Part shown: positions 19,637-54,958 of the stretch, in pieces
Numbering within the stretch: the stretch's first letter is position 1
How the letters are laid out: the number at the start of each line of letters is the position of its first letter
The notes under the pieces: model-generated
Database searches by the model: none
Told to the model about the DNA's origin: nothing
Seen by the model: the letters and a program-made list of their open reading frames with translations, nothing else
Source of the DNA: Escherichia coli
GTDB lineage: Bacteria; Pseudomonadota; Gammaproteobacteria; Enterobacterales; Enterobacteriaceae
Strand: one strand, 5' to 3'
NCBI RefSeq assembly: GCF_003018255.1
Contig: NZ_CP027440.1
DNA: 64,000 bases
Translations under genes and position numbers: made by a program

Positions 19637-19668
19637 TTAACCATTCCCATACAATTAGTTAACCAAAA

Positions 19669-19698
19669 AGGGGGGATTTTATCTCCCCTTTAATTTTT
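19669..19698 (+). terminator. probable terminator after clpX (GGGGA/TCCCC stem, U-rich tail)
   Basis: Hairpin and T-rich run read from sequence. Confidence 0.6.
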
Positions 19699-19713
19699 CC
19701 TCTATTCTCGGCG

Positions 19714-19740
19714 TTGAATGTGGGGGAAACATCCCCATAT
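19714..19740 (+). promoter_or_regulatory. sigma-32 heat-shock promoter of lon (TTGAAT-N13-CCCCATAT)
   Basis: Motifs read about 85-110 nt upstream of lon ATG. Confidence 0.7.
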
Positions 19741-19823
19741 ACTGACGTACATGTTAATAGATGGCGTGAAGCACAGTCGTGTCATCTGATTACCTGGCGG
19801 AAATTAAACTAAGAGAGAGCTCT

Positions 19824-36315: not shown

Positions 36316-36885
36316 ATGAAACTCGTGCACATGGCCAGTGGTTTAGCGGTTGCGATTGCGTTGGCGGCTTGCGCAGATAAAAGCGCGGATATTCAGACGC
36401 CAGCACCGGCTGCAAATACGTCTATTTCAGCAACACAACCTGCTATCCAGCAACCGAATGTCTCCGGTACCGTCTGGATCCGTCAGAAAGTCGCACTGCC
36501 GCCTGATGCTGTGCTGACCGTGACACTTTCTGACGCGTCGTTAGCCGATGCGCCGTCAAAAGTGCTGGCGCAGAAAGCGGTGCGTACCGAAGGTAAACAG
36601 TCACCATTCAGCTTTGTTCTGCCATTTAACCCGGCAGATGTTCAGCCGAACGCGCGTATTCTATTGAGTGCGGCGATTACCGTGAATGACAAACTGGTAT
36701 TTATTACCGATACCGTTCAGCCGGTGATCAATCAGGGCGGAACTAAAGCCGACCTGACATTGGTGCCGGTGCAGCAAACCGCCGTGCCGGTTCAGGCCAG
36801 CGGTGGCGCAACGGCTACCGTACCTTCGACTTCACCAACTCAGGTGAATCCGTCTTCGGCAGTTCCAGCTCCTACGCAATATTAA
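36316..36885 (+). CDS. ybaY: lipoprotein YbaY
   Basis: Track ORF 189 aa; signal peptide with lipobox LAAC; AAGGAGA Shine-Dalgarno 5 nt upstream. Confidence 0.88.
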   Translation: MKLVHMASGLAVAIALAACADKSADIQTPAPAANTSISATQPAIQQPNVSGTVWIRQKVALPPDAVLTVTLSDASLADAPSKVLAQKAVRTEGKQSPFSFVLPFNPADVQPNARILLSAAITVNDKLVFITDTVQPVINQGGTKADLTLVPVQQTAVPVQASGGATATVPSTSPTQVNPSSAVPAPTQY

Positions 36886-36915
36886 GCGCAGTTAACCCTC
36901 TCCGCCCGGAGAGGG

Positions 36916-37305
36916 TTAGTAGTTCCAGCGATAACGCTGCAAGTCGATTTGCCCGCTTCCCGATACCATCACACCTTCTGCCAGTAATGCCTGTCGTTGA
37001 CGCTGTAAATCCGGTCCGGTTAGCGAAATTGTGCCGTGGCGATTAACCACCCGGTGCCAGGGCAAGGTGCTGCCTTCGGGGAGACGCTTTAACACACCGC
37101 CTACCTGGCGCGCGGCGCGCGGCGATCCCGCCAGTTTCGCCACATCACCGTAAGTGGTGACATAGCCTTCGGGAATAGCGGCGACGATTTGCCAGACGCG
37201 TTGGGGAAATGAATCTTCTTTTTCCATCTTTTCTTCCTGAGGTAATTTTTCAGCATAATCTGGAAAAACGCCCGAGTGAAGCCGCATTGCGCAAGAAACC
37301 AGCAT
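36916..37305 (-). CDS. atl: alkyltransferase-like DNA-damage-binding protein (MGMT fold, PWHRV in place of catalytic PCHRV)
   Basis: Track ORF 36916..37326; start at 37305 (129 aa) from recalled protein length, 37326 also possible. Confidence 0.85.
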   Translation of the reverse strand: MLVSCAMRLHSGVFPDYAEKLPQEEKMEKEDSFPQRVWQIVAAIPEGYVTTYGDVAKLAGSPRAARQVGGVLKRLPEGSTLPWHRVVNRHGTISLTGPDLQRQRQALLAEGVMVSGSGQIDLQRYRWNY

Positions 37306-37320
37306 CTGGCACGCAATGGG

Positions 37321-37349
37321 TTGCAATTAGCCGGGGCAGCAGTGATAAT
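37321..37349 (+). promoter_or_regulatory. ffs promoter (TTGCAA-N17-GATAAT)
   Basis: Near-consensus sigma-70 hexamers read about 33 nt upstream of the mature 4.5S 5' end, consistent with a processed leader. Confidence 0.6.
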
Positions 37350-37381
37350 GCGCCTGCGCGTTGGTTCTCAACGCTCTCAAT

Positions 37382-37495
37382 GGGGGCTCTGTTGGTTCTC
37401 CCGCAACGCTACTCTGTTTACCAGGTCAGGTCCGGAAGGAAGCAGCCAAGGCAGATGACGCGTGTGCCGGGATGTAGCTGGCAGGGCCCCCACCC
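37382..37495 (+). ncRNA. ffs: 4.5S RNA (signal recognition particle RNA), 114 nt
   Basis: Sequence GGGGGCUCUGUUGGUUCUCCCGCAACGC...GGCAGGGCCCCCACCC read directly; matches 4.5S RNA including the conserved GGAA tetraloop region. Confidence 0.95.
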
Positions 37496-37605
37496 ATTTC
37501 TGCCTCCCCCCGTTTCGTCAAAAAATCCCAACATGGCTAAACTTTAACCACAACTGACGTCGCAAGAATTGTCTGGCTGCGCAGTACGCTTCGGAGGTAT
37601 GTCTG

Positions 37606-37959
37606 ATGAAGTATGTTGATGGTTTTGTTGTTGCCGTTCCTGCCGATAAAAAGGATGCCTATCGGGAAATGGCCGCTAAGGCCGCGCCATTATTTAAAGA
37701 GTTCGGTGCGCTTCGTATTGTCGAATGCTGGGCCAGCGATGTACCGGATGGTAAAGTGACCGATTTTCGTATGGCGGTGAAAGCGGAAGAGAATGAAGAG
37801 GTTGTCTTTAGCTGGATTGAATACCCTTCAAAAGAGGTCCGCGACGCTGCTAATCAAAAGATGATGTCGGACCCACGGATGAAAGAGTTCGGCGAGTCCA
37901 TGCCGTTTGACGGCAAGCGAATGATCTATGGTGGATTCGAATCAATCATCGACGAGTAG
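37606..37959 (+). CDS. ybaA: DUF1428 family protein YbaA
   Basis: Track ORF 117 aa. Confidence 0.9.
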   Translation: MKYVDGFVVAVPADKKDAYREMAAKAAPLFKEFGALRIVECWASDVPDGKVTDFRMAVKAEENEEVVFSWIEYPSKEVRDAANQKMMSDPRMKEFGESMPFDGKRMIYGGFESIIDE

Positions 37960-38000
37960 GTAGCGTGACGGGCTGTGCGGCGTGCCGTCAGCCCTAAAAT

Positions 38001-53026: not shown

Positions 53027-54958
53027 ATGAGTTATCAGGTCTTAGCCCGAAAATGGCGCCCACAAACCTTTGCTGACGTCGTCGGCCAGGAACATGTGCT
53101 GACCGCACTGGCGAACGGCTTGTCGTTAGGGCGTATTCATCATGCTTATCTTTTTTCCGGCACCCGTGGCGTCGGAAAAACCTCTATCGCCCGACTGCTG
53201 GCGAAGGGGCTAAACTGCGAAACCGGCATTACCGCGACGCCGTGCGGCGTGTGCGATAACTGTCGTGAAATCGAGCAGGGGCGCTTTGTCGATCTGATTG
53301 AAATCGACGCCGCCTCGCGCACTAAAGTTGAAGACACTCGCGACCTGCTGGATAACGTCCAGTACGCTCCGGCGCGTGGTCGTTTCAAAGTTTATCTCAT
53401 CGACGAAGTGCATATGCTGTCGCGTCACAGCTTTAACGCACTGTTAAAAACCCTTGAAGAGCCGCCAGAGCACGTTAAGTTTTTGCTGGCGACGACCGAT
53501 CCGCAGAAATTGCCGGTGACGATTTTGTCACGCTGTCTGCAATTTCATCTCAAGGCGCTGGATGTCGAGCAAATTCGCCATCAGCTTGAGCACATCCTCA
53601 ACGAAGAACATATCGCTCACGAGCCGCGGGCGCTGCAATTGTTGGCACGCGCCGCTGAAGGCAGCCTGCGAGATGCCTTAAGTCTGACCGACCAGGCGAT
53701 TGCCAGCGGTGACGGCCAGGTTTCAACCCAGGCGGTCAGTGCGATGCTGGGTACGCTTGACGACGATCAGGCGTTATCGCTGGTTGAAGCGATGGTCGAG
53801 GCCAACGGCGAGCGCGTAATGGCGCTGATTAATGAAGCTGCTGCCCGTGGTATCGAGTGGGAAGCGTTGCTGGTGGAAATGCTCGGTCTGTTGCATCGTA
53901 TTGCGATGGTACAACTTTCGCCTGCTGCTCTTGGCAACGACATGGCCGCCATTGAGCTGCGGATGCGTGAACTGGCGCGCACCATACCGCCGACGGATAT
54001 TCAGCTTTACTATCAGACGCTGTTGATTGGTCGCAAAGAATTACCGTATGCGCCAGACCGCCGTATGGGTGTTGAGATGACGCTGCTGCGCGCGCTGGCG
54101 TTCCATCCGCGTATGCCGCTGCCTGAGCCAGAAGTGCCACGCCAGTCCTTTGCGCCCGTCGCGCCAACGGCAGTAATGACGCCAACACAGGTGCCGCCGC
54201 AACCGCAATCAGCGCCGCAGCAGGCACCGACTGTACCGCTCCCGGAAACCACCAGCCAGGTGCTGGCGGCGCGCCAGCAGTTGCAGCGCGTGCAGGGAGC
54301 AACCAAAGCAAAAAAGAGTGAACCGGCAGCCGCTACCCGCGCGCGGCCGGTGAATAACGCTGCGCTGGAAAGACTGGCTTCGGTCACCGATCGTGTTCAG
54401 GCGCGCCCGGTGCCATCGGCGCTGGAAAAAGCGCCAGCTAAAAAAGAAGCGTATCGCTGGAAGGCGACCACTCCAGTGATGCAGCAAAAAGAAGTGGTCG
54501 CCACGCCGAAGGCGCTGAAAAAAGCGCTGGAACATGAAAAAACGCCGGAACTGGCGGCGAAGCTGGCGGCAGAAGCCATTGAGCGCGACCCGTGGGCGGC
54601 TCAGGTGAGTCAACTTTCGCTACCAAAACTGGTCGAACAGGTGGCGTTAAATGCCTGGAAAGAGGAGAACGGCAACACGGTGTGTCTGCATTTGCGCTCC
54701 TCTCAGCGTCATCTGAATAACAGTGGCGCACAGCAAAAACTGGCTGAAGCGTTGAGCACGTTAAAAGGTTCAACGGTTGAACTGACTATCGTTGAAGATG
54801 ATAATCCCGCGGTGCGTACGCCGCTGGAATGGCGTCAGGCGATATACGAAGAAAAACTTGCGCAGGCGCGCGAGTCCATTATTGCGGATAATAATATTCA
54901 GACCCTGCGTCGGTTCTTCGATGCGGAGCTGGATGAAGAAAGTATCCGCCCCATTTGA
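53027..54958 (+). CDS. dnaX: DNA polymerase III subunit tau (full-length product)
   Basis: Track ORF 643 aa; Walker A GTRGVGKTS; Zn module CGVCDNC. Confidence 0.97.
   Translation: MSYQVLARKWRPQTFADVVGQEHVLTALANGLSLGRIHHAYLFSGTRGVGKTSIARLLAKGLNCETGITATPCGVCDNCREIEQGRFVDLIEIDAASRTKVEDTRDLLDNVQYAPARGRFKVYLIDEVHMLSRHSFNALLKTLEEPPEHVKFLLATTDPQKLPVTILSRCLQFHLKALDVEQIRHQLEHILNEEHIAHEPRALQLLARAAEGSLRDALSLTDQAIASGDGQVSTQAVSAMLGTLDDDQALSLVEAMVEANGERVMALINEAAARGIEWEALLVEMLGLLHRIAMVQLSPAALGNDMAAIELRMRELARTIPPTDIQLYYQTLLIGRKELPYAPDRRMGVEMTLLRALAFHPRMPLPEPEVPRQSFAPVAPTAVMTPTQVPPQPQSAPQQAPTVPLPETTSQVLAARQQLQRVQGATKAKKSEPAAATRARPVNNAALERLASVTDRVQARPVPSALEKAPAKKEAYRWKATTPVMQQKEVVATPKALKKALEHEKTPELAAKLAAEAIERDPWAAQVSQLSLPKLVEQVALNAWKEENGNTVCLHLRSSQRHLNNSGAQQKLAEALSTLKGSTVELTIVEDDNPAVRTPLEWRQAIYEEKLAQARESIIADNNIQTLRRFFDAELDEESIRPI
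54294..54350 (+). other. dnaX: dnaX programmed -1 ribosomal frameshift cassette producing gamma: SD-like AGGGAG (54294-54299), slippery A_AAA_AAG (54310-54316), -1 frame stop TGA (54319-54321), downstream stem-loop (about 54323-54350)
   Basis: All elements read in the dnaX frame (AAA=Lys429, AAG=Lys430); a -1 shift yields ...K-K-E-stop, a 431-aa gamma. Confidence 0.9.

Follow-up and report, generated by a model that had tools for sequence, protein, structure and literature searches.

What is encoded by a stretch of DNA on which a structured RNA and several open reading frames (ORFs) lie across one another? This question is raised by the ffs locus in the window, a stretch of 64,000 nucleotides from Escherichia coli (contig NZ_CP027440.1). 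An earlier note on this DNA had placed here an intact signal recognition particle (SRP) RNA, preceded by a promoter of the form TTGCAA-N17-GATAAT and by a short leader that is removed by processing, and it had regarded two ORFs overlapping the RNA as spurious and as liable to mislead a protein-only annotation. Work on ffs, on its promoter and on the leader processed by RNase P goes back to the 1970s and 1980s, and the locus as such is already known and a textbook case, its RNA being a classical non-tRNA substrate of RNase P. With near certainty, the locus is the single-copy, essential ffs gene of E. coli with its own sigma-70 promoter and a leader that is removed by RNase P, and the ORFs crossing it are not genes. 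The identity of the RNA, its structure and covariation, the conservation of promoter and leader and the non-conservation of the ORFs were computed here, while the start site, the processing by RNase P and RNase T and the binding of Ffh are taken from the literature. The features of the locus are collected in Table 1.

Table 1. Features of the ffs locus and of its surroundings, in coordinates of the window.
Feature	Position	Strand	Basis or remark
-35 hexamer TTGCAA	37321..37326	+	sequence, sigma-70-like scan, conservation
-10 hexamer GATAAT, 17-nt spacer	37344..37349	+	sequence, scan, conservation
G+C-rich discriminator GCGCCT, -10 box to start site	37350..37355	+	sequence
5' leader of the primary transcript, removed by RNase P	37356..37381	+	26 nt if the start is at -26; literature
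Leader hairpin GCGUUG / CAACGC, 5-nt loop	37358..37374	+	predicted, fold of 37356-37540
Mature 4.5S RNA (ffs)	37382..37495	+	114 nt; K-12 identity, RF00169, fold, covariation
Domain IV core (Ffh-binding region)	37424..37447	+	24-mer in many phyla; PMC7967276
GGAA (GNRA) tetraloop of domain IV	37434-37437	+	sequence
3' single-stranded ACCC overhang	37492..37495	+	unpaired in MFE structure; PMC3439924
ATTTCT, short U-rich tract after the mature end	37496..37501	+	conservation; role inferred
ORF of 112 aa, ATG start, spurious	37209..37547	+	ORF list; 5' end antisense through atl
ORF of 60 aa, GTG start, spurious	37276..37458	+	ORF list
Divergent neighbour atl/ybaZ (MGMT-family DNA base-flipping protein)	36916..37227	-	PGAP; longer K-12 form starts at 37305
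Downstream neighbour ybaA (DUF1428)	37606..37959	+	ORF list, PGAP, K-12 annotation
sraA sRNA	19657-19752	-	Rfam, 106.7 bits
DnaX ribosomal frameshifting element	54291-54355	+	Rfam, 96.8 bits

Identity, ends and fold of the mature RNA

By direct reading of the sequence, the mature RNA begins with GGGGGCTCTG... at 37382 and runs with ...GGGCCCCCACCC to 37495, which gives a length of 114 nt; in a longer reading, it starts with GGGGGCTCTGTTGG... from 37382 and finishes with ...GGCAGGGCCCCCACCC up to 37495. All 114 of 114 nucleotides are the same as in ffs of E. coli K-12 (b0455), for which the curated gene of strain MG1655 is likewise 114 nt long (NC_000913.3 476448-476561). Alignment of the 321 nt at 37290-37610 with K-12 MG1655 revealed two substitutions only, at 37315 and 37509, both outside the promoter hexamers, the leader and the mature RNA; promoter, leader and mature RNA are thus all identical to K-12, and the neighbourhood of the gene is the same as well.

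An Rfam scan of the whole window gave three matches above the gathering score, namely sraA, the DnaX frameshifting element and Bacteria_small_SRP (RF00169, of clan CL00003). The covariance-model search had been proposed in the earlier note as a check, and the RF00169 match lies at 37390-37486 and extends over the full model (1-97 of 97) with 68.1 bits against a gathering score of 40 (E 5.5e-13). The biochemical RNA runs 8 nt farther than the model at the 5' side and 9 nt farther at the 3' side, comprising the terminal helix and the ACCC tail. The PGAP annotation of ffs is the Rfam span alone (97 nt, 37390-37486), whereas the K-12 annotation has 114 nt. The 114-nt ends given in the earlier note are better than those of PGAP and correspond to the biochemical RNA.

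The 114-nt RNA folds into one long hairpin with a minimum free energy (MFE) of -57 kcal/mol and a z-score of -3.15 relative to dinucleotide-preserving shuffles, of which 2 out of 200 fold as stably. Its domain IV is formed around the 24-mer GGTCAGGTCCGGAAGGAAGCAGCC, which in a scan using one genome per species was found as an exact match in at least 120 genome contigs; the carriers among the matches listed belong to Proteobacteria, Actinomycetota, Firmicutes, Chloroflexota, Planctomycetota and others. The domain IV motif is critical for Ffh binding (PMC7967276), and Ffh binding and SRP function are known for the identical K-12 RNA (PMC7967276, PMC5499578). The exact core is also shared by the large SRP RNA of Bacillus (scRNA, 271 nt), the 24-mer being found in contigs of Bacillus and Paenibacillus; unlike 4.5S RNA, however, the Bacillus scRNA has an Alu domain and is matured by RNase III-type cleavage and not by RNase P (PMC1935012).

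Covariation was analyzed in an alignment of the window sequence with 27 gamma- and betaproteobacterial homologues (28 sequences in total), in which compensatory changes preserve the pairing in 15 of 32 consensus pairs. Since the domain IV motif had served to find the homologues, the central 24 columns are invariant by construction and the covariation is confined to the helices flanking them. Close relatives already carry paired substitutions, such as G27A together with C80U in Citrobacter and U37C together with A68G in Enterobacter. Such paired compensatory changes are a signature of selection acting on the RNA and not on a protein. All features accessible in silico place the RNA in RF00169; the match to Rfam, the identity to K-12 and the compensatory changes all bear out the intact SRP RNA that had been read at 37382-37495 on the plus strand.

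Promoter and start site

The two hexamers that had been proposed as promoter of ffs are present at 37321-37349, with the last base of the -10 box (37349) 33 nt before the mature 5' end at 37382, in line with the ~33 nt of the earlier note, whose coordinates hold to the base. In a consensus scan of 36800-38000 they form the sole sigma-70-like site, and taken by itself this match is no better than chance, with 1 site found versus 0.7 +/- 1.0 expected in shuffles. The promoter is credible because it is conserved across species and because published mapping of the start site agrees with it, and not on account of the consensus match alone.

Conservation was assessed in five Enterobacterales loci, i.e., the window, Escherichia albertii, Citrobacter werkmanii, Enterobacter sp. 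and Superficieibacter electus. GATAAT is invariant in all five, the -35 box is kept as TTGCAA or TTGCAT in the four relatives, and the spacer is constant in length and variable in sequence. In the cross-genus alignment the conserved block starts at the -35 hexamer, just upstream of which the sequence diverges, and stops at ACCCATTT just past the mature 3' end. Identity to the three non-Escherichia relatives is 97-98% in the mature RNA and 88-94% in discriminator plus leader (37350-37381; this range also describes the four other Enterobacterales together), compared to 52-76% in the upstream intergenic region and 29-45% in the downstream region. E. albertii is closer throughout (mature RNA 100%, upstream region 95%, downstream region 89%). 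Beyond the Enterobacterales, a promoter of the form TTGnAA-N16/17-nAnAAT lies 27-41 nt upstream of the mature 5' end, and it was found in eight gammaproteobacterial loci including that of E. coli (three from Pseudomonas/Stutzerimonas, one each from Rheinheimera and Haemophilus, and two from Vibrio).

In published RNA-seq data the 5' ends lie mainly at -26, where a sigma-70 start is also predicted (PMC5499578), and dRNA-seq independently gave a start 26 bp ahead of the annotated 5' end (PMC7967276). Position -26 corresponds to 37356 of the window; the base there is a G, and its distance of 7 nt from the -10 box is canonical. The chance-level consensus match would also fit a view in which the hexamers are incidental and ffs is transcribed mainly from promoters near -130 or -160, yielding a longer precursor. 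For this view speak predicted starts at -160 and -130, minor RNA-seq 5' ends near -153 and -127 and primer-extension products exceeding the classical precursor in length, although the precursor lengths in primer extension remain unclear according to the same authors (PMC5499578). However, the primary 5' ends of that study and the dRNA-seq start coincide at -26, hexamers and spacer length are kept where the region upstream of the -35 box is poorly conserved in the three non-Escherichia relatives, and equivalent promoters occur at the same distance in all eight gammaproteobacterial loci, which makes a main transcript from farther upstream very improbable.

The promoter at 37321-37349 is followed directly by a GC-rich discriminator. 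The discriminator of rrnB P1 is GCGCC, which is resembled by the GCGCCT of ffs, so that ffs is in this respect like the promoters of stable RNAs such as rrnB P1, while its spacer length and its -35 sequence differ from that promoter. By this analogy, the GC-rich discriminator suggests a stringent or growth-rate control of ffs. The discriminator is also GC-rich in Pseudomonas, Stutzerimonas, Rheinheimera and Haemophilus and is not so in Vibrio.

The leader and its hairpin

A start at -26 agrees with the short processed leader that had been postulated (PMC5499578, PMC7967276), and an older biochemical estimate of its length, quoted in PMC5499578, amounts to 22 nt. RNase P has been named as the processing enzyme of 4.5S RNA (PMC7049720) and its action was shown in vitro and in vivo (PMC5499578), while plant protein-only RNase P enzymes are unable to process the 4.5S precursor (PMC5499578). 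The sequence is compatible with an RNase P-processed precursor, the promoter ending 33 nt upstream of the mature 5' end.

Within the leader a small hairpin is predicted (Table 1), which was reported to be conserved in Enterobacteriaceae on the basis of BLAST searches (PMC7967276). In the Enterobacterales loci compared here its stem is invariant and its loop variable. At the equivalent site, downstream of the -10 box and ahead of the mature 5' end, hairpins of 6-8 bp are predicted in Pseudomonas, Stutzerimonas, Rheinheimera, Haemophilus and Vibrio (loci L031, L043, L057, L109, L049, L067, L078 and L119, in each case upstream of their ffs), and altogether a hairpin is predicted within these ~30 nt in 13 of 13 gammaproteobacterial loci. 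The stems of different orders are unrelated in sequence, and so are even those of the two Vibrio species. Over eight representatives, the Fisher-combined shuffle p-value is ~2e-7, which is approximate since the boundaries of the leaders were chosen by the authors and mononucleotide shuffles were used.

The leader also shares an exact 10-nt direct repeat with the RNA itself: GTTGGTTCTC is found at 37360-37369 in the leader and at 37391-37400 in the 5' strand of the mature RNA, with AACGCT following both copies. It was considered as a conserved functional alternative pairing or partial duplication, and this was rejected: the leader copy is missing from E. albertii, Enterobacter, Citrobacter and Superficieibacter, and the G27A/C80U change in the mature helix of Citrobacter has no counterpart in the leader. 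The direct repeat is probably incidental or the trace of a recent local event.

The 3' end

The RNA ends in a 4-nt ACCC overhang, and RNase T is reported to be stopped by CC, leaving this overhang on 4.5S RNA (PMC3439924). Behind the mature end, ATTT is present in all five Enterobacterales loci and conservation collapses directly afterwards; T-rich sequence also trails the ffs RNAs of Pseudomonas. A pattern scan of 36800-38000 and the fold of 37356-37540 detected no separate terminator hairpin downstream of ffs. One terminator-like match at 37373-37387, which crosses the junction of leader and mature RNA, was discarded as a chance match, with 1 found versus 1.6 expected from shuffles of 36800-38000. 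With regard to the mode of termination, we infer that the long 4.5S helix together with the ATTTCT tract may release the transcript, of which a few nucleotides would then be trimmed.

In the two Vibrio loci (L078, L119), a canonical terminator hairpin AAGCCTGCAAT...ATTGCAGGCTT with a T-rich tract follows right after ffs, whereas E. coli is without one. On sequence grounds, this difference implies that E. coli and Vibrio may use different routes of 3' maturation.

Open reading frames across the RNA

Both ORFs named in the earlier note, of 112 and 60 aa, are contained in the mechanical ORF list, along with several shorter ones on both strands. No Pfam match was obtained for the 112-aa or the 60-aa ORF, even at E = 1, and the exact 112-aa sequence was not found in the protein collection. 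Neither ORF is annotated in curated K-12 or by PGAP. The 112-aa frame begins antisense inside atl, upstream of the start site of ffs; in E. albertii it runs into a stop at -20 and in Superficieibacter into one at -35. The shorter frame of 60 aa meets a stop at -16 in Enterobacter and Citrobacter and is left with no usable start codon in Superficieibacter. In the same relatives in which the ORFs break, the RNA is 97-100% identical. Upstream of the promoter, the cross-genus alignment contains indels of 1, 2, 4 and 6 nt.

One public entry carries the exact 60-aa translation, namely hypothetical protein EFER_2561 from E. fergusonii ATCC 35469 (CAQ90056.1, UniRef100_B7LMC3), and hence the earlier warning that a protein-only annotation would be misled describes something that did occur. 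EFER_2561 clusters with a 156-aa product that was called on a short Logan contig.

That one or both ORFs encode a real small protein, so that the locus would have a dual function, is highly unlikely. Both frames are indeed open in the window, and the 60-aa frame is open in E. albertii too and has the deposited entry. Against this stand the missing Pfam families and annotations, the cut or startless frames in E. albertii and Superficieibacter (112 aa) and in Enterobacter, Citrobacter and Superficieibacter (60 aa), upstream indels that are not multiples of three, the antisense beginning of the longer frame, and substitutions inside the RNA that are paired and compensatory and thereby of the RNA type of selection. 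As judged from these comparisons, the ORFs over ffs lack protein-level selection and are not genes, in line with their earlier description as spurious.

Genomic context and copy number

The gene order tesB-ybaY-atl-ffs-ybaA-pdeB is the canonical context of ffs. Among 5426 complete E. coli genomes, 5424 carry the 175-nt stretch of the ffs finding, each in exactly one copy; identity reaches 99% or more in 5411 of these 5424, and ffs is annotated in every match listed. A longer query of 421 bp (37200-37620) matches 5424 of the 5426 genomes, with ffs, an MGMT-family protein and ybaA as annotated features. The idea that the copy in the window is a non-functional duplicate or pseudogene of ffs, for which no support was found, can be dismissed as next to impossible, as promoter, leader and RNA are identical to the K-12 gene, the copy is the sole one in each E. 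coli genome and its context is canonical.

Several side observations were made on these genomes and on related loci. Two of the 5426 complete genomes are without a match to ffs, an essential gene, and two of the 5424 matching records are plasmids and not chromosomes. In 64 genomes, less than 80% of the 421-bp query was matched (5360 of 5424 reach at least 80% coverage) although the 175-bp core is complete; this pattern points to insertions or rearrangements of the flanking DNA. In Stutzerimonas urumqiensis (NZ_RBZQ01000004.1), two ffs-like copies (L109 and L110) lie ~12 kb apart on one scaffold; the second one diverges in its 5' terminal strand, differs in the region upstream and could be a duplication or the remnant of an integration site.

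The start of the divergent neighbour atl/ybaZ is annotated inconsistently. In K-12 the protein has 129 aa from 37305, which is 16 nt from the -35 box of ffs, and in PGAP it has 103 aa from 37227. The CAT at 37225-37227, corresponding to the short start, is conserved across genera, with the coding sequence at 37150-37227 being 73-90% identical, and an AGGAAG Shine-Dalgarno-like sequence lies ahead of this start. The extension of the long form (37228-37305) is poorly conserved and has indels that are not multiples of three. Comparison of the sequences thus indicates that the short form is probably the right one.

From transcript to signal recognition particle

Taken together with the literature, these data are consistent with the following course of events. 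The sigma-70 promoter would start transcription at about 37356, and the primary transcript would bear a leader of ~26 nt with the small hairpin. RNase P would then cleave between 37381 and 37382, recognizing the long terminal helix and the 3' ACCC tail much like the acceptor stem and RCCA of a tRNA. Exoribonucleases would trim the 3' end until RNase T stalls at the terminal CC, leaving the 114-nt hairpin RNA. Its apical domain IV with the GGAA tetraloop would bind Ffh to form the signal recognition particle, which would direct ribosomes that synthesize membrane proteins to the membrane-located FtsY. As for the ORFs across ffs, they are by-products of the sequence and not translated genes.

In its maturation 4.5S RNA is similar to precursor tRNAs, as a single RNase P cut is made at the base of a helix bearing a 3' single-stranded NCC(N) tail and RNase T, halting at CC, completes the 3' end (PMC3439924, PMC7049720). 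Unlike precursor tRNAs, 4.5S RNA has no tRNA body and consists of one long hairpin.

Implications for annotation and for the ffs leader

For annotation, the locus teaches that a structured G+C-rich RNA gene yields long open frames that can be called by a protein-only pipeline, and EFER_2561 of E. fergusonii is a concrete case from a public database in which an RNA gene is annotated as a protein. Automated RNA annotation, as done by PGAP via Rfam, for its part makes the 114-nt RNA too short, by 8 nt at the 5' side and by 9 nt at the 3' side.

The recurrence of the leader hairpin across gammaproteobacterial loci is one modest extra beyond the published account in PMC7967276, which is confined to Enterobacteriaceae. 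It is possible, if somewhat doubtful, that the predicted hairpin has a function and is conserved in its structure throughout the Gammaproteobacteria, instead of being an appendage specific to Enterobacteriaceae. If this is true, the hairpin could shield the triphosphate 5' end of the transcript until cleavage by RNase P, it could position RNase P, or it could guide the co-transcriptional folding of the long helix.
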